Assembly: GCA_041483195.1 (NCBI GenBank)
Contig: JBGPFC010000014.1
Coordinates: forward strand, 1 to 64,000
Direction: 5' to 3'
Source: Candidatus Eiseniibacteriota bacterium
GTDB taxonomy: Bacteria; Eisenbacteria; RBG-16-71-46
Length of the DNA stretch: 64,000 bases
Positions 2,444 through 13,661 of this stretch are shown here, one piece after another (position 1 is the stretch's first letter; the number at the start of each line of letters is the position of its first letter). Both the position numbers and the translations under genes were made by a program. The notes under the pieces were generated by a model. That model did no database searches. It was not told where the DNA came from and saw only the letters and a program-made list of their open reading frames with translations.

Positions 2444-5400
2444 ATGAGCGAAACACAACCACCACGAGGATTTCGGTTCGACGATCCACGCCAAGCGCGG
2501 ATCTTTGAACGACTACGCCGCCTGATAGGTGAAGGCCCGGCACAGTTCTTTCGTGATGCCTGCCACCTAAGGAGTGACCACTCCACGCTTGATGCGCGAT
2601 CGCACCTCGCGGCCCATGCCCTGCGAGAGGTTGAGAGCGCAGTCCGCGAAGTGCTCGAACCATTCGAGGATGGGACCCCAGTTCCAAAGGGCACAGAGAA
2701 CTCAAACAAGAAGTCGATCATGAAGGTGTGCCGCGGCCTACAAGTCCCAGACGATGACCCGCTGGTACCGGAATGGCTGGGGCTCACGGGAAAGGACAAC
2801 CCTGACGCCCTGCACAACCGCGCCCATCGTCACGACCTTCGTCCGCCCCGTCCCGTGGATGGGCCATTTGCGAGATGGTTCGATCGCGTCTTGACGATTT
2901 TCGACGTTGTACTTGAAAGGGCAGAAGCAAGGTACTCGGTCGTCTTCCTTGCTTTGGAGGCCTTGGTCGTGAAGGCCACCCCCGACCCCGGCGATGTCGA
3001 TTCGATCCGGCGGCGGGTGCCAAGCACTCCACTTACCCATGGGTACTTCTTCGAGCGCCTCGAGCACGCGGACTGGCTTGAACCACTAGCCAAGGCCGGC
3101 CTTCTGACGCTCGTTCCGCCCCTCGATAGGAATGAAGAAGAGGGCACTATTGGATTCCCGCCCTGGCCTGCCAAGCCTTACCTCTTGCGCATGGCACAGA
3201 CCGGGGATCGAGCGATCCAAGAGTCAGTGGTTCGTATCCTGAAGACGTTACCGGAGACAGACAATACCCGTGTGCACGCTGACGTGGCTGAGATCGGCAC
3301 GGTGTTGCCAGCCGATCTCGCGAAGCAGCTAGTAGACTTTGTCGATCGCGGTCTTCGAGAGCCATACCATCTCGGGCTACCACACCAGGCGGCGCCGTTC
3401 ATCGTCCATCTGGCAGAGTCGGGGAGTCTCGAGAAGGCCACAAGTCTCACGAAGACCCTCTTTGAGGTACTGCCTGATCCGACGCCGCCGAAGACCATTG
3501 GCGACATGACCTATGCGCCAACCGCACGAGCTCGGATGCAGGACGTGTTCTACAGACACGAGCTGGAGAAGGTAGCGCCCGCACTCACTGCTGCCGACCC
3601 CTGCAAGGCTGCAAGAACGTTTGCTGGCCTGCTGGCTCAAGCCGTACAGCACTCCTTCACGGATGGTGGAGACGGGAGAAACTCCCACTCACACGTATGG
3701 TGGCCGGCGATCGACGGCGGAGGCCAGCGACTTGATGAGCCGCGTGAGCACCTGCTCGATGCCCTGCTTAGTGCAGTCGATGAGTGTGCCGGGCAGGGTC
3801 CCGAGCACGTCCGTGACTTGGTGCGAATGCTGGAAGATCACGGTTGGCTTGTGTTCAAGCGTGTTGCCCAGCACTTGCTCTCGGCGGATGACGCTCCTGC
3901 GGATCTCGCGGACGCGATGGCCACAGATCTCAAGCTGCATGACGAGCCCGAGACAAGGGCGGAACACACCACGCTGCTGAGGAAACGATTGCCACACCTC
4001 GATGAGGCTCAGCGTGACAGGGTGCTTGCCCGCCTCACGGCTGGACCCGATCCGGCTGAGCAACGACAGAGCCTGGAGTCGTGGTTGGGCCGGAGCGTAT
4101 CCGACGAGGAAGTAGAGAAGGACATTAGGCGCCGAAGGTTCATTGAGCTGAGGACTTTGGACGGACTGCTACCGTCCGAGCTCCAGGCCAAGTTCGAAGC
4201 CCTAGCCGCAGAGTTCAGGGCGGAGGAAGCGCCACCTCTTCCCGCCGCCGGCTGGGGTGATCGAAGTCCGAAGAACTCAGACGAACTCCTGGGGCTCTCC
4301 GACCACGATCTCTTGGCCTACCTGAGAGACGTGAAACTCGGCCACGATCCGTTTGGGCCGTCCATGGAGGGCCTCGGCGACTCTCTGGCGGACGCGGCCT
4401 CACGCGAACCTGAGCGACTCTCTCGGATTGCCGCCGAGTTCATCGGCCTGGACCCCTCCCTTGTGTCTGGCCTCCTGCGCGGTCTCGAGGTGGCCGCGAA
4501 GGCAATGAAGACGGTGGCGTGGGAAGAGGTGCTGAGACTGTGTCGTTGGGTGGTGGATCAGCCGCGCGAGATTCCGGGTCGCAAGACGAGGTACGCAGAC
4601 TTGGATCCAGGGTGGGCCTGGACGCGGCGGCAGATCGCATCGCTGCTGCTGCAGGCTCTCCAGGACGAGCCCGGCGCAATCGATATCTCCCTCCGAAATG
4701 AGCTGTGGCCTGTGATCGCCGTGCTTCTGACGGATCCCGACCCCGAGCCTTCGCGCACTCGAGAGGATGATCCGCTTACGACCGCGTTGAATAGCGTGCG
4801 CGGCGAGGCGATCAGGACTGTCATGGCTTACGGCCTTTGGGTCCGTCGCGCCCTTACGGAATTCAAGACCTTCGAGAAGATGTCTGAGGTCAAGGAAGCG
4901 CTTGAAGCTCACTTGGACCCGACCGTCGACTCGTCACCGGCGATTCGCGCGGTGTATGGCGAACTCCTAGCCCTCCTCTACCATCTTGACGAGCCATGGC
5001 TACGCGCAAACCTCAAGAAGATCTTCCCCGATGACCCGGCGCTAGCCAACCTGCGCAGGGCGGCATGGGAGAGTCACGTGCGGTACCGGGACCCGCTGGT
5101 GCCGATGCTCCGAGAGCTGGACCCCGAGTACAGGAGAGCTATCGAGGTGGCACAGCACGAAATTGAGGCCGACAAGAAGCCCGAGTCCGCAGCGCGTCGT
5201 CTCACAGAACACATCATGATCCTGGGGTGGCAGGGCAACGTGCCGCTCGACGACCCCAACGGACTGGTGGCGACCTTTTTCCGACGGGCGCCCCAACCCT
5301 TGCGTGCACATGCGATGGAATTCGTTGGCCGATCTCTCATGAACACCGAAGGGCCAGTTGCGAAGGATGCGCTTGCTCGCGTGATCCGCCTGTGGGACCT

Positions 5401-5800
5401 GCGGCTTGAGTTCGCCCGCACCGCTCCGGTTGAGTCTGTACGAGACGAGCTCGCCGCATTCGGGTGGTGGTTTGCCTCGAAGAAGTTCGAGAAGAGCTGG
5501 GCGCTTGCTCAACTAAGAGAGGCGCTCGGCATCGCTGGGGACGTCGATTGGGAACATCAGGTCATCGAGACGCTAGCGGAATGGGCCGACTCGTCTGCGG
5601 CTGCGTGCGTTGAGTGTCTCGATCTGATCATGCAGCGAGAGCGCGAGCGATGGGGTCTCGACCTGTCCCTGGCGCCGGCTCGGAAGGTGCTGGAATCAGC
5701 CTGGAAATCAGACGATCCAGCAGCGCAGCGACGCGCTCGTGACGTCGTGAACCGCTTAGCCTCCCGTGGCTACCACGGATTCAGGGACCTGCTCGGCTGA
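2444..5800 (+). CDS. Large helical-repeat protein with N-terminal HEPN-like domain; candidate anti-phage defence protein
   Basis: 1118 aa; N-terminal SHLAAHALREVE...LHNRAH; long alpha-solenoid-like remainder with TTALNSVRGEAI; located in the accessory region. Confidence 0.55.
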   Translation: MSETQPPRGFRFDDPRQARIFERLRRLIGEGPAQFFRDACHLRSDHSTLDARSHLAAHALREVESAVREVLEPFEDGTPVPKGTENSNKKSIMKVCRGLQVPDDDPLVPEWLGLTGKDNPDALHNRAHRHDLRPPRPVDGPFARWFDRVLTIFDVVLERAEARYSVVFLALEALVVKATPDPGDVDSIRRRVPSTPLTHGYFFERLEHADWLEPLAKAGLLTLVPPLDRNEEEGTIGFPPWPAKPYLLRMAQTGDRAIQESVVRILKTLPETDNTRVHADVAEIGTVLPADLAKQLVDFVDRGLREPYHLGLPHQAAPFIVHLAESGSLEKATSLTKTLFEVLPDPTPPKTIGDMTYAPTARARMQDVFYRHELEKVAPALTAADPCKAARTFAGLLAQAVQHSFTDGGDGRNSHSHVWWPAIDGGGQRLDEPREHLLDALLSAVDECAGQGPEHVRDLVRMLEDHGWLVFKRVAQHLLSADDAPADLADAMATDLKLHDEPETRAEHTTLLRKRLPHLDEAQRDRVLARLTAGPDPAEQRQSLESWLGRSVSDEEVEKDIRRRRFIELRTLDGLLPSELQAKFEALAAEFRAEEAPPLPAAGWGDRSPKNSDELLGLSDHDLLAYLRDVKLGHDPFGPSMEGLGDSLADAASREPERLSRIAAEFIGLDPSLVSGLLRGLEVAAKAMKTVAWEEVLRLCRWVVDQPREIPGRKTRYADLDPGWAWTRRQIASLLLQALQDEPGAIDISLRNELWPVIAVLLTDPDPEPSRTREDDPLTTALNSVRGEAIRTVMAYGLWVRRALTEFKTFEKMSEVKEALEAHLDPTVDSSPAIRAVYGELLALLYHLDEPWLRANLKKIFPDDPALANLRRAAWESHVRYRDPLVPMLRELDPEYRRAIEVAQHEIEADKKPESAARRLTEHIMILGWQGNVPLDDPNGLVATFFRRAPQPLRAHAMEFVGRSLMNTEGPVAKDALARVIRLWDLRLEFARTAPVESVRDELAAFGWWFASKKFEKSWALAQLREALGIAGDVDWEHQVIETLAEWADSSAAACVECLDLIMQRERERWGLDLSLAPARKVLESAWKSDDPAAQRRARDVVNRLASRGYHGFRDLLG

Positions 5801-5974
5801 TCGGCCGGCCTCCTCTTGGTCTCCTCTTCAACGACCTCTCCCCTCGCAGCCTCTCTCACCACCACTTCATCAGAATCCTTCGCGTAGCGCTGCGTCGTGA
5901 CGATGTTCGCGTGTCCGAGAATTTGCTGCAGCGCCGCGAGACTCCCGCCTCGTCCCAGCCCCTGACACGCCAAG
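5800..5974 (-). pseudogene. Tyrosine integrase C-terminal tail fragment (copy 1)
   Basis: LACQGLGRGGSLAALQQILGHANIVTTQRYAK; homologous to 11009-11563. Confidence 0.85.
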
Positions 5975-6714: not shown

Positions 6715-7008
6715 ATGGGAAGGCGACGAGTGTTCAGCCGGGAGTTCAAGACCGAGGCGATCCGGCTGGTGCTGGAACGAGGTGTGACGGTGGTCCAGGC
6801 GGCCAAGGATCTCGGGGTCCACGAGAACGTCCTGGGCAAGTGGGTGCGGGACTTCAAGGCAGACCCGGAGCAGTCGTTCCCGGGTCGCGGCAAGCTGAAG
6901 CCTGACGACGCCGAAGTCGCACGGTTGCGGCGCGAGCTGGCGAAGACCAAGGCCGAGCGGGACATTCTAAAAAAAGCGATCGCCTACTTCGTGAAAGACC
7001 CGCAGTGA
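6715..7008 (+). CDS. IS3 transposase OrfA
   Basis: HTH (FSREFKTEAIRL), leucine zipper, ILKKA with A7G slippery run at ~6969-6976 whose -1 frame is open into OrfB. Confidence 0.95.
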   Translation: MGRRRVFSREFKTEAIRLVLERGVTVVQAAKDLGVHENVLGKWVRDFKADPEQSFPGRGKLKPDDAEVARLRRELAKTKAERDILKKAIAYFVKDPQ

Positions 7009-7871
7009 AGTTCGGGTTCATCGCGAAGCACCGAGGGGTCTGGCGAACGAACGAGATGTGCGGGGCGCTCGGTGTCTCGCGAGGCGGGTTCTACGAGTGG
7101 ATGCGGCGGCCCGAGAGTGCACGGGCGCACGCCGACCGCCATCTCGTGGTGCAGATCCGCACCAGCTTCGAGCAGAGCGATCGCACGTACGGTAGTCCGC
7201 GCGTGTGGCGTGACCTGCGCGAGTGGGGGCACGCGTGCGGTCGCCATCGCGTCGCCCGATTGATGCGGATCGAAGGCCTGCAAGGTCGTCGCAGGCGTCG
7301 GCGGTTGCCGTTCGATGCTGGCGTGCGGCCCGAGAACGCGATTGCGCCGAACCTCCTCGATCGCCAGTTCGAGGCGGAGGGTCCGAACCAGCGCTGGGTG
7401 GCGGACTTCACGTACCTGTGGACCGCGGAAGGCTGGCTGTTCGTCGCGGTGGTGCTCGATCTGTTCTCGCGACGCGTCGTCGGCTGGTCGATGAGCGCAC
7501 AGATGAACGCGGAGTTGGTGAGCGAGGCGTTGATGATGGCGGTCTGGCGCCGCGGCCGGCCCAGGGAGCTGTTGCATCACTCCGACCAGGGCAGTCAGTA
7601 CACGAGTGAGGCGTTCCAACGAGTGCTGGCCGAACTCGGCATCACCTGCAGCATGAGCCGCAGTGGCAACGTGTGGGACAACTCGGCGATGGAGAGCTTC
7701 TTCTCGAGCCTCAAGACCGAGCGCGTGAACCGGCGGCAATACCGGACGCGCGAGGAGGCGCGAGCCGACGTGTTCGACTACATCGAGAGGTTCTACAATC
7801 TACGTCGGCGGCATTCGACGCTGCAGTACCTGAGCCCGGTGGCGTTCGAGAACGCAGCGGGATCAGCTTAG
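7005..7871 (+). CDS. IS3 transposase OrfB (DDE)
   Basis: WVADFTY, HHSDQGSQY, DNSAMESFF motifs; GTGA overlap with orfA. Confidence 0.95.
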   Translation: MKFGFIAKHRGVWRTNEMCGALGVSRGGFYEWMRRPESARAHADRHLVVQIRTSFEQSDRTYGSPRVWRDLREWGHACGRHRVARLMRIEGLQGRRRRRRLPFDAGVRPENAIAPNLLDRQFEAEGPNQRWVADFTYLWTAEGWLFVAVVLDLFSRRVVGWSMSAQMNAELVSEALMMAVWRRGRPRELLHHSDQGSQYTSEAFQRVLAELGITCSMSRSGNVWDNSAMESFFSSLKTERVNRRQYRTREEARADVFDYIERFYNLRRRHSTLQYLSPVAFENAAGSA

Positions 7872-8703
7872 GAGCGTGTCAGGAGAACCGGGGCAAGGCC
7901 ACACGCGGCCACGGATGCCGACGTAGCATGGCGCTTCCGGCACATATGCCGCCATAGAGAACGCTCGTAGCGCTACAAGCGCACTCTCCGTTTCCTCGAG
8001 AGCCACTTCAAGTGCCCGCTGTCGATCCGCTTCCACCGTGATCACTGCGAACACATGTCCCTCATATGCGCGCCGCATCTTCGTAAGAAATGTTCCTTGC
8101 CTCTCTAACAGGGCTGGATCTGCTGGCCGAGTTCGTTGGCCGAATGCCTCGAAATGCTCTGCGTCAAACGTCCTGAACACTACGTTCGCCAGGCGCAGAT
8201 CGCGGCCAATGCGCAGATTGTCTATCGGCACGGACACTTCGCAGGGTCGAATCAGGCGCTCGACTTCGCGCAGGAGGAAGGTACTGAATCCCACCTCTGC
8301 CTCGGCATCGCCTAACGTCCGTCCCTTTAGCCAAGCGATCATCGCATTCATGATCGTGGCGCTGCCCACCTGGTCTCGTAGCTCGGCACGACCTGCGAGC
8401 GCATTCACAACCTTGTGATACGCTGGATAGCGCTCTTTCGTGAATCCGAGCCAACCCTGAGACGTGCTGAAGTATATTGCGTTTTCATTCCCCAACATGT
8501 CGCCGATGGCAAAAGATGCGAAACTGCGAATGTCGGCCGAGCGAATGCGCTCGACGCTTTCAGGCATCTCTTCGAGTTCGCGTACCTTGGCCTCGTGCTC
8601 CGCGGCCGGTGCCTTCAACAATCCAATGAGGGTCTCTGATTCTCCGTCGAAGAATCGACGCGCCCCATCAGGTAGGTCCAAGGCCATACGGCACCCTCCT
8701 CCG

Positions 8704-8880
8704 GCTACGGTCCGGCTACGGTCTCCGCGTCCTCTTACGTCTCTTACCGTCCAGCATGGCCCATCGACAGCGAGAGCCCCAACGAGTCACAACCCATTGG
8801 GGCTCATGCTAACTCCATCACGCGACGCCTGCGAATTCGTTTGGTCTCTTGAGTTCTCGTTTTCGGCCCGCGCCGCTTAG
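8704..8880. repeat. att-arm-like region (homologous to 12754-12930)
   Basis: GCTACGG x2 at 11-bp spacing, GTCY x3 at 10-bp spacing (8729/8739/8749), hairpin gagccccaa...ttggggctc, ending at TTAG core. Confidence 0.7.
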
Positions 8881-8975
8881 ATGAGATGAAGCGGCTGACC
8901 CCCAGCGTGACGTGGTACCCGTTTCCGGGGCCACTGCTTCAACGCGTCAGAGCCGCAATCGCCGGGAGGTCAGCC

Positions 8976-10016
8976 ATGGAGCATATTGGCATCGACGTCC
9001 ACAAGAACGAAAGCCAGATCTGCCGCCTCACCGAGGAGGGCGAGATCCTCCAGCAGCGCATCGCCACGCGCCGCGACCGCTTTGCCGCCGTGCTCGGCAT
9101 CCTTCCGAGGGCCCGCGTCCTGATCGAGGCCTCGACCGAGAGCGAGTGGGTCGCCCGCTGCCTCGAAGAGCTGGGCCACGAGGTGATCATCGCGGATCCG
9201 AACTTCGCGCCGATGTACGCCACCCGCAGCCGGCGCGTGAAGACCGACCGTCGTGACGCTCAGGCGTTGATGGATGCCTGCCGGCTCGGAGCCTATCGTC
9301 CCGCCCATCGCACGTCGGAGCCCCAGCGACGGGTGCGTACGCTGCTCGCGGTGCGCGACAACCTCGTGCGCACTCGTGTGCGTCAGGTCCAACTGCTCCG
9401 CGCGCTGTTGCGCCGCGAAGGCCTGCGTCCGCGCAGTGGCCAAGTCTCGAGCTTCACCAAGCGCCTGGAGGAGGTCGAGCCGCCGCCGTGGCTGCGCGAC
9501 CTCATCGCGCCAGTGCCAGTCGTCATGGAGGCGCTCAACCGGGAGATGGTGCGGGTCGAGCAGGCGATCGTGGATATCGTGCGGGAGGATCCGGTGGTTC
9601 AGCGGTTGTGCACGACGCCGGGCATCGGCCCGGTGACGGCGGTGGCGTTCGTCTCGACGCTCGATCAGGTCGAACGGTTCGAGGGCGCCCACAAGGTCCA
9701 GGCCTACATCGGACTCGTGCCGTCCGAGTTCAGCTCGGGCGAGCGCCGCCAGCGCGGAGCGATCACCAAGACGGGCAACACACGCCTGCGATGGCTGCTG
9801 GTCGAGGCCGCCTGGTCCGTCCTGCGATCGCAGCCTCCACGCACCCAGGAGCTGAGGCGCTGGACCCAGGCCATCGCCGTGCGCCGCGGTCAGCGCATCG
9901 CCATCGTCGCGCTCGCGCGCAAGCTCGCGGGGATCCTGTACGCGATGTGGCGGGACGGGACTGCGTTCGGCGACAAGTCGGCGTCCGCGGCACGAGCGCC
10001 GGCGTGCGTCGCGTGA
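8976..10016 (+). CDS. IS110-family DEDD recombinase/transposase
   Basis: GGAGGT RBS then MEHIGIDVHK, IEAS, KTDRRDA, PGIGPVTA, FSSGER motifs. Confidence 0.95.
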   Translation: MEHIGIDVHKNESQICRLTEEGEILQQRIATRRDRFAAVLGILPRARVLIEASTESEWVARCLEELGHEVIIADPNFAPMYATRSRRVKTDRRDAQALMDACRLGAYRPAHRTSEPQRRVRTLLAVRDNLVRTRVRQVQLLRALLRREGLRPRSGQVSSFTKRLEEVEPPPWLRDLIAPVPVVMEALNREMVRVEQAIVDIVREDPVVQRLCTTPGIGPVTAVAFVSTLDQVERFEGAHKVQAYIGLVPSEFSSGERRQRGAITKTGNTRLRWLLVEAAWSVLRSQPPRTQELRRWTQAIAVRRGQRIAIVALARKLAGILYAMWRDGTAFGDKSASAARAPACVA

Positions 10017-10039
10017 AGGCCTGAGACCATCACCCCTTG

Positions 10040-10200
10040 GCGACGTTCACGAACTGGGGCGGATGAGCGCGTAGTTTCCTATGGCTGCCGTTGAGGCCGT
10101 TCATTAGATAGCGCCTCCGCCCCATCGCACGATCCTCTTGCGCCGGCAGCCAGCGCGGTGCCACTAACGAGCGCGGACAGAAGGGTGAGGAACCTCGCCG
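10040..10200 (+). ncRNA. Putative bridge/seek RNA of the IS1111-type element (boundaries approximate)
   Basis: Stem tggggcgga/tccgcccca enclosing internal loop with GTTTCCTA and TTAG (target match); second loop with TCCTCTT and ACAGAAG (donor-junction match). Confidence 0.7.
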
Positions 10201-10302
10201 AGGACAACGTTACGGACGCACGACAGCAGGAGGATGATGAAACCATCCACCCATCCCGAGAGCACAACACATCGCACTTGCCCGGGGGCGCCGCTTCACA
10301 GA

Positions 10303-10341
10303 AGGAAATCGCTGCTCCATCCGTCTGAGCTACCAGGGCAC
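10303..10341 (-). pseudogene. tRNA-Arg(CCT) 5'-half remnant (att-like), anticodon loop split by the IS110 element
   Basis: Minus strand GTGCCCTGGTAGCTCAGACGGATGGAGCAGCGATTTCCT; D-arm GCTC/GAGC; no 3' half. Confidence 0.75.
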
Positions 10342-10433
10342 GAGCGGAGCACTGGGTTTGATTCACTGCGACTTCCGCAGGTCGGCTCCGATGATCGATC
10401 AACCCACGCCGACCCCGGCTGCTACAGAGCGCG

Positions 10434-10991
10434 CTACAGAAACTCTTTTCCAACGTTCTTCCAAAGCTCCCCAAGCAGGTCGGCCACTGTGATCATTCCG
10501 ACCTGATGCTGAGTTCCGAATGCGATCGAAGCTGGAAGCCACACATCGGGGTCTTTCTCGTTCACCCCGACTGCCCGAGCGAAAACTTGCCCGACCCTGA
10601 GTCCCCTCGCCGCGGTATCGTCGCTAGTGCGAAACGCACCGACATATTGCTCTTCCCGCGCCGACAGGTCACCCATGAATGCGGCAAAGGCTGGATCACC
10701 CATCTGCTCCCGATGCGCGTCCCAGAACCCCGCAAGCATCTCTTGTGCGACCGCGCGCATCAGACCATCGATCCCTTGACACGTCGCGATGATGCGCAGC
10801 ATGAGCATTTCCCTGAGCGTGTCGGTCGGATCCATTCCTTCCGCTCCCTCGAACAAATGCGCCGACTTCTCGGGGTCCGCCTGTCGAAGTGCGGACTTGT
10901 ATGCCAGCGCCCCGATGGACTTGGCTGTCAGCTCGCCCCTCTTTCGATCCTGGTTCAGAAGTCTCGGGAGTGCTCTCTCTGGCACGTTCAT
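10434..10991 (-). CDS. Hypothetical cargo protein (185 aa)
   Basis: GGAG RBS then MNVPERALPRLL..., starts 18 nt after the integrase stop. Confidence 0.6.
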   Translation of the reverse strand: MNVPERALPRLLNQDRKRGELTAKSIGALAYKSALRQADPEKSAHLFEGAEGMDPTDTLREMLMLRIIATCQGIDGLMRAVAQEMLAGFWDAHREQMGDPAFAAFMGDLSAREEQYVGAFRTSDDTAARGLRVGQVFARAVGVNEKDPDVWLPASIAFGTQHQVGMITVADLLGELWKNVGKEFL

Positions 10992-12923: not shown

Positions 12924-12963
12924 CTAGGAAACCGCTGCTCTATCCGTCTAAGCTACGGGCAAC
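12924..12963 (-). pseudogene. tRNA-Arg(CCT) 5'-half remnant (att-like junction)
   Basis: Minus strand GTTGCCCGTAGCTTAGACGGATAGAGCAGCGGTTTCCTAG; stops at the anticodon loop. Confidence 0.8.
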
Positions 12964-13520: not shown

Positions 13521-13661
13521 GGACGGATTCGTAAGGCCTCCTGTCTCACGACCTCATCCGACAGCTTCGCTAACCGCTGCATCGTCTCGATGCTCGCGTG
13601 CCCGAGGATCTGGTGCAAGGCGGCGAGACTGCCACCGCGCTCCAGCCACCGACACGCCAAG
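13517..13661 (-). pseudogene. Tyrosine integrase C-terminal tail fragment (copy 3; catalytic Tyr replaced by Leu)
   Basis: LACRWLERGGSLAALHQILGHASIETMQRLAKLSDEVV. Confidence 0.85.

Follow-up and report, generated by a model that had tools for sequence, protein, structure and literature searches.

Within the IS1111 family, IS1111-attC elements and IS4321/IS5075 are said to target integron attC sites and Tn21-family inverted repeats. Target choice in IS1111 and IS110 elements was found by experiment to be RNA-guided (PMC11187229, PMC11208160), and the IS1111 group is characterised in PMC11187229 by a transposase of 330–350 aa with the pattern GL-P----S(T)G, subterminal repeats of 7–17 bp and a long downstream non-coding region. 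Here, a stretch of 64,000 nt from a Candidatus Eiseniibacteriota bacterium (contig JBGPFC010000014.1, positions 1 to 64,000), referred to as the window, was analysed to follow up a sequence-only reading, which had proposed an IS1111-type element whose RNA is programmed to a tRNA-Arg site and whose coordinates were all correct on direct reading. The element comprises the following parts:

8881–10304, + strand, intact IS1111-type insertion sequence, 1424 bp with one AG core copy counted
8887–8895, + strand, left subterminal inverted repeat, TGAAGCGGC, 9 bp, with the extension ATGAGA before it
8976–10016, + strand, transposase/recombinase gene (P0001, 346 aa), with GGGAGG 7 nt upstream of the start
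10290–10298, + strand, right subterminal inverted repeat, GCCGCTTCA, with CAGA and the core AG after it

The assembly holds a single copy of the element, and the closest named record to it is a Candidatus Eisenbacteria genome. Non-coding stretches of 95 nt (8881–8975) and 288 nt (10017–10304) lie upstream and downstream of the transposase gene, respectively. P0001 includes the motif GLVPSEFSSG, which fits the IS1111 pattern, and matches the Pfam domains PF01548 (2.8e-17) and PF02371 (8.1e-26). It was aligned over both domains to the IS621 transposase 8wt6 (E = 2.8e-17), the alignment spanning GID, IEA, KTDxxDA and the SG motif. The N-terminal DEDD/RuvC-like domain with the C-terminal PF02371 places it in the IS110 family, and the subterminal repeats, the longer downstream non-coding region and the 346-aa transposase with its motif agree at sequence level with the IS1111 group. 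The element is bordered by a tRNA-Arg half and an island arm, not by an integron attC, which sets it outside the IS1111-attC subgroup. The subterminal repeats form a 9-bp complementary pair with extensions of 6 nt on the left and 4 nt plus the core on the right, and comparison of related loci revealed such a pair in most relatives, where the element ends are conserved and the flanks are not. A -35-like box near the right end reads TTGAC in relatives and TTGCCC in the window copy, and a scan of 8700–10500 found no sigma-70-like promoter or terminator.

The core dinucleotide AG was read from the sequence at the left junction (8879–80) and again at 10303–04; on the tRNA strand, the left copy is the CT of the anticodon CCT. 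Excision of 8881–10304 in silico yields gcTTAGGAAatc, so that removal at the AG core does restore an anticodon-loop site, as had been claimed. The surrounding features are:

8700–8878, - strand, left half of the target, ending TTAG, contributed by the arm of the neighbouring island
10305–10339, - strand, 5' half of a tRNA-Arg(CCT) copy, running as far as the anticodon loop, compared with the intact gene of contig C5
11027–11605, - strand, tyrosine-integrase remnant of the tRNA-half island, PF00589
12925–12960, - strand, uninterrupted sister site, a further tRNA-Arg 5' half with ...TTTCCTA at its end, joined to an island arm

The insertion site is the junction of two tandem islands carrying tyrosine integrases. 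The tRNA half at 10305–10339, with 2 mismatches to the tRNA over a 16-mer, is the arm of the right-hand island and the right half of the target; CCGTAGC is directly repeated in the left arm, at 8704 and 8715. Paired CCGTAGC repeats adjoin three att sites, and four such pairs occur genome-wide. The integrase remnant and the integrase adjoining the intact tRNA of C5 are 69% identical over 178 aa. ARAGORN found no complete tRNA in the window, where only 5' halves are present. In this genome of 70% GC, the 9-mer target TTAGGAAAC is present a single time in 4.17 Mb, within the intact tRNA, against 4.1 occurrences expected by base composition. The target sequence is TTAGGAAATCGC at the window copy's own site and CTAGGAAACC at the sister site. 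In the contigs of four other sediment DNA runs the site was occupied, with no empty site; both junctions were bridged, and neither a joint across the element nor a circle junction was present. One loose end at 8878 in these contigs belongs to a different relative. No RNA run was listed among the sequencing runs holding the site.

A conserved RNA was predicted downstream of the transposase gene, with the following parts:

10035–10203, + strand, predicted bridge/seek RNA core, 169 nt, covariance model R1 score 143.6 bits
10035–48 with 10190–203, + strand, closing stem P0, tested separately
10055–63 (TGGGGCGGA) with 10116–24 (TCCGCCCCA), + strand, stem P1, perfect 9 bp
10067–70 with 10111–14, + strand, GCGC pairing, R1 model, covariation
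10071–10081, + strand, target loop, 5' strand, GTAGTTTCCTA, holding GTTTCCTA at 10074–81
10082–86 with 10095–99, + strand, stem P2, R1 model, covariation
10100–10110, + strand, target loop, 3' strand, TTCATTAGATA, with TTAG at 10104–07
10125–10139, + strand, donor loop, 5' strand, ending TCCTCTT (10133–39)
10140–50 with 10157–74, + strand, P3/P4, R1 model, covariation
10175–10189, + strand, donor loop, 3' strand, GGACAGAAGGGTGAG, with ACAGAAG at 10177–83

Model R1 matched 83 places in 100 sources and a further 71 in 80 metagenome loci, all of them 3' of a transposase gene and on the same strand. Covariation was tested on 77 distinct homologues. In the R1 stems, 93.7% of cells were paired, against 28–52% when the partners were slid, and compensatory changes were present in 19 of 28 pairs, values reached by none of 500 shuffles. 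The stem 10055–63/10116–24, described earlier as enclosing an internal loop, is among those supported. P0 was missed by RNAalifold on the first alignment, in which the 5' ends were misaligned; tested separately, it averaged -16.9 kcal/mol with its own partner and -12.3 with others. The minimum-energy fold of the 169-nt core recovers P0, P1, the GCGC pairing, P2 and P3/P4. Folding energy of one sequence is weak evidence for RNA structure: the whole 3' end gave z = 0.00 (92 of 200 shuffles as good) and the core z = -1.80 (14 of 200). No Rfam family was matched in the window at gathering thresholds. The loop registers are the same as in more than 100 relatives, and by this comparison the loops picked out in the sequence-only reading correspond to the predicted target- and donor-binding strands of a conserved RNA.

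The 5' strand of the target loop pairs with the top strand T-AG-GAAA(C/T)-x-GC, that is, the core and the right flank. Both the 8-mer GTTTCCTA and its uninterrupted counterpart, TAGGAAAC on the plus strand at 12925–32, were present as reported. On the 3' strand, the TTAG that had been matched to the left side of the target extends to TTAGAT, which reproduces the left junction: TT of the left flank, the AG core and the element's first two bases. The guide match to the left flank is limited to TT. The match to the top strand is located 5' of that to the bottom strand, with an overlap between them; this order and overlap are also described for IS1111 elements in section 9 of PMC11187229. Contiguous guide–target matches are short (8 nt and 4–6 nt) and the fit beyond 8 nt is imperfect: the right flank of the element's own site agrees at 5/8 by identity, and at 10/11 over T-AG-GAAAT-C-GC when G-T wobble is admitted and counted by eye.

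The second loop fits the donor loop that had been proposed. ACAGAAG (10177–83) is identical to 10298–10304, the right end with the core, and this strand agrees with the right end at 6 or 7 of 7 positions in 25 of 33 distinct loop/end pairs. TCCTCTT is complementary at 6/7 to A-AG-A.GA of the joined ends. The left-end donor strand is weaker, at 6/10 in the window element with a mismatch that recurs family-wide; across the family its register averages 6.27/10, against 2.5–4.3 at shifted registers. Donor strands co-vary with the ends, for example as CAGA/TAGA/TACA/GAGA.

In 24 of 65 distinct loci guide and flank agreed at 7/8 or better, a level reached by 3 of 3690 mismatched pairs, and the left side averaged 3.9/6, against 1.4/6 in mismatched controls; the pattern exceeds chance and bears out a guide programmed to the tRNA-Arg site. 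Copies with the same guide do not sit in unrelated sequences: the same tRNA-Arg sequence, GAAA[CT]C[GC]CTG, follows in 9/9 right junctions (window, L005, L006, L007, L008, L011, L014, L114 and L116), TTAG ends 8/8 left junctions, and the junctions sit at TTAG/GAAAC of the tRNA-Arg(CCT) anticodon arm. Close relatives with other guides occupy other sequences that fit their own guides, and the nearest ones, L115 and L117, differ in both guide and flank. The right flank of L009 matched its own guide in no register tried, and L006 and L008 have unequal junction cores (AG and GG).

The loop–target matches of this one copy might have arisen by chance, with the protein choosing its site through the subterminal repeats or through a structure formed by the anticodon-arm palindrome. 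The shortness of the contiguous matches and single-sequence folding no better than shuffles lean that way, but the co-variation of guides and flanks over 65 distinct loci against 3690 controls, that of donor strands with ends, and the RNA-guided target choice described experimentally in PMC11187229 and PMC11208160 make this account barely credible. A single old insertion, at one ancestral island or tRNA-Arg locus and then inherited or carried by islands, would leave the recurrence of the site uninformative on targeting, and the element could be inactive now. It would accord with one copy per genome in 16/16 RNA-holding genomes (among 89 genomes of the family), with the occupied site in the four other runs, with short stretches of similarity among the window, L005 and L114 on their left flanks, and with the degenerate -35-like box. 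We nevertheless consider it improbable: the elements are 19–31% apart in DNA, yet the non-functional tRNA halves at L005, L007, L014 and L114 match the working tRNA perfectly or almost so; no similarity links L006, L008, L011 and L116 in their left flanks, and neighbouring genes differ, with a host-type kinase in genome G063 and an integrase in the window; and the guide has stayed complementary, while the nearest relatives switched guide and site together.

More weight, although it still seems rather unlikely, is due to the view that the tRNA gene itself is the target as a conserved host sequence, and that islands merely offer harmless duplicates to an element not adapted to them. The best guide match in the genome is indeed the intact tRNA (TTAGGAAACCGC), and in G063 host-type kinase genes lie ahead of the occupied half, with no integrase homologue within 20 kb around the insertion by tblastn. 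Pfam searches of the neighbours in G004 and G039 gave no integrase, and an empty-site search for the G004 insertion found about 55 nt adjoining the element not conserved in the genus. Against this view, none of the seven same-guide insertions with both flanks visible lies in an intact tRNA, and the sites of L006, L008 and L011 keep only 14–16 nt of tRNA-like sequence each, common to att sites; island att context is supported for one of these three only. One such short site, in G039, has an uninterrupted paralogue beside a CCGTAGC motif. Furthermore, the CCGTAGC repeats of the islands, which are not host sequence, are occupied by a second IS lineage of the same bacterial family.

We therefore favour, as the probable explanation, an IS1111 element with a guide RNA of about 169 nt for the tRNA-Arg(CCT) arm, sitting in an island-borne copy of it. 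The RNA encoded downstream of the transposase gene would be made, bound by the recombinase of 8881–10304 and used to guide it. Its donor loop, a multiloop, would hold the joined ends of the element (ACAGA-AG on the right, AG-A.GA on the left), and transposition would proceed via a circle. Both loops would jointly specify TTAG/GAAAC(C)GC, the anticodon loop and 5' anticodon stem of tRNA-Arg(CCT), with the crossover on the last two anticodon bases. The target in this genome is confined to the tRNA gene and the 5'-half copies left by tandem tyrosine-integrase islands. The insertion at the island junction splits the crossover site of the islands and spares the working tRNA; it may block use of the att site there. 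Insertions in the intact tRNA would presumably be removed by selection.

The sequence-only reading went further and described the recombinase as specialised on the att core of another mobile element. RNA-guided targeting holds up; the specialisation we infer only from the locations of surviving copies, because the guide fits the host tRNA as well as the island copies. The second IS lineage, at the arm repeats of the islands, lends some help to such specialisation. It is possible, and we put it forward tentatively as something we would sooner doubt than assume, that separate bridge-RNA IS lineages have each set their guides on the recombination signals of one type of tRNA-Arg island, one lineage at the crossover core and another at the adjoining CCGTAGC repeats, likely integrase arm sites. 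Guides would then follow the integrase sites of another element and not host sequence, the islands would be both safe harbours and vehicles, and a core-splitting insertion would lock or fuse neighbouring islands.

The locus offers a clean natural case of an RNA-guided recombinase whose target is legible in the sequence and can be checked against independent copies. About 150 natural guide/target pairs with one RNA architecture are usable for pairing rules, including wobble, tolerated mismatch positions and unequal cores. If insertions disable att sites, the elements may shape the decay, fusion or joint travel of tandem islands. Like IS1111-attC and IS4321/IS5075, this IS1111-family element would have as its target a recombination site or terminal repeat belonging to a different mobile element; here, however, the struck element is a tRNA-integrating tyrosine-integrase island, and the sequence is shared with a host gene of essential type.

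In comparison with the seekRNA elements ISEc11, ISPa11, ISKpn4 and ISPst6 as described in Siddiquee et al. 2024 (PMC11187229), the window element shares a DEDD transposase of 330–350 aa, the GL-P----S/TG motif, subterminal repeats, a long downstream non-coding region and guide matches overlapping at the crossover. It differs from the elements described there in its target, the anticodon arm of tRNA-Arg(CCT) or the att copy of that arm in an island, and in its host, an uncultured lineage of 70% GC. The IS621/IS110 bridge RNA described in Durrant et al. 2024 (PMC11208160) likewise has two parts with target and donor strands, each with a 2-nt core; the recombinases are homologous (E = 2.8e-17) and the core on the tRNA strand is CT, as it is in IS621. 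Unlike that of IS621, the window RNA is encoded 3' of the gene, at the right end, with the order of guide strands reversed and the donor strands in a three-way junction, not an internal loop; Durrant et al. (PMC11208160) describe such a junction for donor strands in many IS1111 elements. A literature search found no description of IS110/IS1111 elements in tRNA genes or island att sites; the natural-target supplements of PMC11208160 and PMC11187229 may contain such cases. The bridge/seek RNA mechanism and the targeting of other elements' recombination sites are already published, and current understanding of the mechanism is unchanged. New are the tRNA/att target, which brings those sites in integrase islands into the small set of other elements' recombination sites used by IS1111 elements, and the second lineage at the CCGTAGC repeats of the islands.

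The core dinucleotide AG is present at 8879-80 and again at 10303-04, bounding an IS of 1,424 bp (window 8881-10304) with 95 nt of non-coding DNA upstream of the transposase gene and 288 nt downstream. All coordinates of the sequence-only reading were correct on direct reading of the window. The IS and its surroundings contain the following features:

8887-95 and 10290-98: subterminal inverted repeats of 9 bp, TGAAGCGGC and its complement
8976-10016: transposase ORF, 346 aa, the sole long ORF of the IS
10305-10339, minus strand: 5' half of tRNA-Arg(CCT) in the right flank of the IS, by comparison with the assembly's own intact gene, on contig C5
8704/8715 and 12754/12765: paired CCGTAGC repeats in island arms
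13526-13660 and 5842-5973, minus strand: two C-terminal pieces of the island tyrosine integrase, with 76-77% identity over ~45 aa

The Pfam domains DEDD_Tnp_IS110 and Transposase_20 were found in the transposase, and the solved IS621 transposase aligns with it at E = 2.8e-17. Its GLVPSEFSSG corresponds to GL-P----S/TG, given as the IS1111 transposase motif by Siddiquee et al. (PMC11187229). A 90-codon frame at 10230-10506, without Pfam match, has AGGAGG followed by ATG at 10234 and exits the right end of the IS into the tRNA half; relatives have a stretch resembling AGGAG/ATG at the same place.

Excision of the IS gives TTAGGAA, the reverse complement of the anticodon loop TTCCTAA, as had been claimed, and the proposed sister site proved to be a second, uninterrupted tRNA-Arg 5' half ending at 12925. 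ARAGORN detected zero tRNAs in the window because it holds halves only; an intact tRNA-Arg(CCT) was located on C5. Upstream of that gene are a tyrosine-integrase gene, a small ORF and two CCGTAGC repeats, and the minus strand of the window, upstream of the interrupted half, repeats this order from an integrase remnant (178 aa aligned with the C5 integrase at 69% identity) through the ORF to the tRNA half. Beyond each tRNA half in the window there is a similar arm of ~175 nt and then the paired CCGTAGC repeats. Only four pairs of this kind occur in the whole 4.17-Mb assembly, three of them adjoining tRNA-Arg sites, and CCGTAGC is probably an integrase arm site of these islands. The two additional integrase fragments show that, besides the two islands flanking the IS, further decayed ones belong to the array. 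Gene order, arms, repeats and integrase fragments thus identify the locus as an array of decayed islands in tandem, whose integration site is the tRNA-Arg(CCT) anticodon loop and which supply a tRNA 5' half of their own; the IS lies exactly in the crossover loop at the junction between two of them. The fourth CCGTAGC pair, on another contig (C10:19741-19760, 12-nt spacing), may mark another related island. The island region also contains an 1118-codon ORF (2444-5800, without Pfam match at E <= 0.01) and, inside the neighbouring island, an IS3-family element at 6715-7871 (orfA with HTH_Tnp_1, orfB with rve and HTH_21).

Relatives of the IS were drawn from the same bacterial family, named genomes and metagenomes. 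The closest in a named genome is from a Candidatus Eisenbacteria genome (80% protein identity), the remainder being from many phyla at 53-66%. A covariance model of the guide RNA, R1, was built from an alignment of 19 downstream regions. It matches the window once, at 10053-10200 (143.6 bits), and gave 83 matches in 100 sources and 71 in 80 metagenome loci, all 3' of the transposase gene and on the same strand; 16 of 89 family genomes carry the RNA. The fold expected by the sequence-only reading was borne out across homologues: in 77 distinct sequences, whose alignment was fitted to R1 and is thus biased towards the structure in both counts, 93.7% of cells are paired (28-52% with slid partners), and 19 of 28 pairs have compensatory changes, observed values that none of 500 shuffles attains. 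For the closing stem (10035-48/10190-203), folding energy is -16.9 kcal/mol with its own partner and -12.3 with the partners of other sequences (36 distinct pairs). The minimum-energy fold of 10035-10203 reproduces all stems, with an energy modestly better than shuffles (z = -1.80); for the whole 3' end of the IS z was 0.00. In layout, a closing stem leads to two arms, one with an internal loop that holds the target strands and the other a hairpin.

To compare guides with insertion sites, IS ends were located by a conserved repeat motif. Thirteen of the 83 matches were dropped (without right-end motif or with incomplete guide) and five duplicates were then taken out, leaving 65 loci. The 5' loop strand, taken as its reverse complement, was scored against the 8 bases past the right-junction core in two registers only, and several low scorers fit a third. 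At least 7 of 8 bases match in 24 of 65 loci, compared with 3 of 3690 unrelated-guide pairings (means 5.09 and 2.75). For the 3' loop strand, which also spans the core and first bases of the IS, the comparison was with the 6 bases preceding the left junction in 63 loci; the mean match is 3.89 (controls 1.43). Among 33 distinct pairs, 25 have a donor 3' strand equal to right end and core at 6-7 of 7 positions, and variants co-vary. For the donor 5' strand a single register fits the joined ends (mean 6.27 of 10; 2.5-4.3 when shifted), and base 2 of the left end is recurrently mismatched; the 6/7 match of TCCTCTT to the joined ends, noted earlier in the window, lies in this family-wide register.

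The complement of the window guide reads A-T-AG-GAAAC-TAC. Against its own site, T-AG-GAAAT-C-GC, 10 of 11 positions are paired with G-T wobble counted by eye, and opposite the T that departs from the tRNA the RNA has a G. In a tree of 139 transposases, a single clade (local support 0.69) takes in the IS that carry this guide or one of its near variants, ACAGGAAACTGC, ATAGGAAACTGC and ATGGGAAACCTC; local support is 0.995 once the sister pair L115 and L117, whose guides and flanks are different, is included. The expectation that other copies would lie in like sites was confirmed: the right junction is GAAA[CT]C[GC]CTG in nine of nine loci, namely the window, L005 (G063), L006 (G068), L007 (G047), L008 (G004), L011 (G039), L014 (G051), L114 and L116, with L011 (target loop lost by internal deletion) and L014 (starting inside the RNA) grouped by DNA similarity only. 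Left junctions end in TTAG in all eight visible loci. The right flanks hold full tRNA 5' halves in six of the nine, and only 14-16 tRNA-like bases in L006, L008 and L011; for L011, an uninterrupted paralogue of the flank in the same genome reads AGAGCAGCGGTTTCCTAA, with the motif CCGTAGCC upstream. Both flanks can be seen at seven loci, and at none of these is there a tRNA 3' half on the left side. On the complete chromosome G063 a 5' half (764600), a 5' half with the IS (772205) and the intact tRNA (777712) follow in order.

In L115, from a metagenome contig and the nearest relative whose guide differs, guide and right flank disagree at three positions, all of them G-T, which hints that wobble pairs would be tolerated in target recognition. 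L006 and L008 have AG as left-junction and GG as right-junction core, with CCC (for GGG) in the target-loop 5' strand and AG still in the donor strand; different core bases can therefore be encoded in the four guide strands, and similar behaviour is seen in L035 and the L045 group. A 64-nt RNA remnant with no intact IS around it (L240, G081:C43:3165-3228; guide AG-GAAGCCGC, left guide TTTAG) carries a further variant directed at the same tRNA arm.

Whether these copies descend from one inherited event or from repeated insertion was weighed on their divergence and surroundings. Same-guide copies differ by 19-31% in DNA, several of the non-functional tRNA halves adjoining them are identical to the working tRNA, left flanks are mostly unrelated and neighbouring genes differ, which together favours repeated insertion. 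Gene conversion of the tRNA halves may be an alternative. That flanks are alike past the stretch read by the guide is explained by the available sites, which are only the tRNA-Arg and its island-borne copies: at a genome GC of 70%, the intact tRNA has the sole occurrence of TTAGGAAAC in the assembly (4.1 expected from composition), and TAGGAAA[CT] occurs 12 times, one of them the guide DNA of the IS itself. No sign of present-day activity was seen: there is one IS copy per genome in the window's own assembly and in family genomes with the RNA. An empty site was sought in contigs of four other runs and none was found, the same occupied site being seen. A search for promoter-like sequence at the IS gave no match. 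For IS621 a promoter spanning the joined ends, with its -35 box at the right end, has been described; relatives have TTGAC(A/G/C) ~25 nt from the right terminus, the expected -35 place, where the window copy has TTGCCC (10278-10283).

A second lineage of the same family has the repeat TGAAGCAGC and the left guide GTAGC-CG: L009 (G022:C2), L220 (G022:C9), L013 (G050), L015 (G019), L236 (G060) and L239 (G037), with L009 and L013 forming a separate clade in the transposase tree. Its insertions are at or between CCGTAGC/CGGTAGC direct repeats, which flank tRNA-Arg att sites. In both L009 and L220 the insertion follows GACCGTAGC-CG and has an integrase fragment upstream, and L013 lies between two CGGTAGC repeats; in L236 and L239 a GTAGC motif lies 5-7 nt beyond the junction. 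The L015 guide matches TGAGACCGT of GAGACCGTAGCCGACCGTAGCC, and a near-identical uninterrupted site, GACGCGGAGACCGTAGCC, is present in the window's own island arm (8700-8735). The right flank of L009 does not fit its own guide. Because this lineage, a small sample, sits at island CCGTAGC/CGGTAGC repeats, specialisation of the IS on islands would be more than a guess.

The proposed mechanism is the one already published for bridge/seek RNAs. Both donor strands of the window RNA are placed in a three-way junction, in agreement with the IS1111 RNAs of Durrant et al. (PMC11208160), where donor-binding bases are often in a multiloop. The top-strand match lies 5' of the bottom-strand match and overlaps it, the same order as in the IS1111 elements described in PMC11187229. 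In the full texts searched, neither a tRNA nor an island att site was described as a target, and within that scope the tRNA/island att site is a new class of target for a known kind of element, IS1111 homing to recombination sites of other elements being on record for attC sites and Tn21 repeats.
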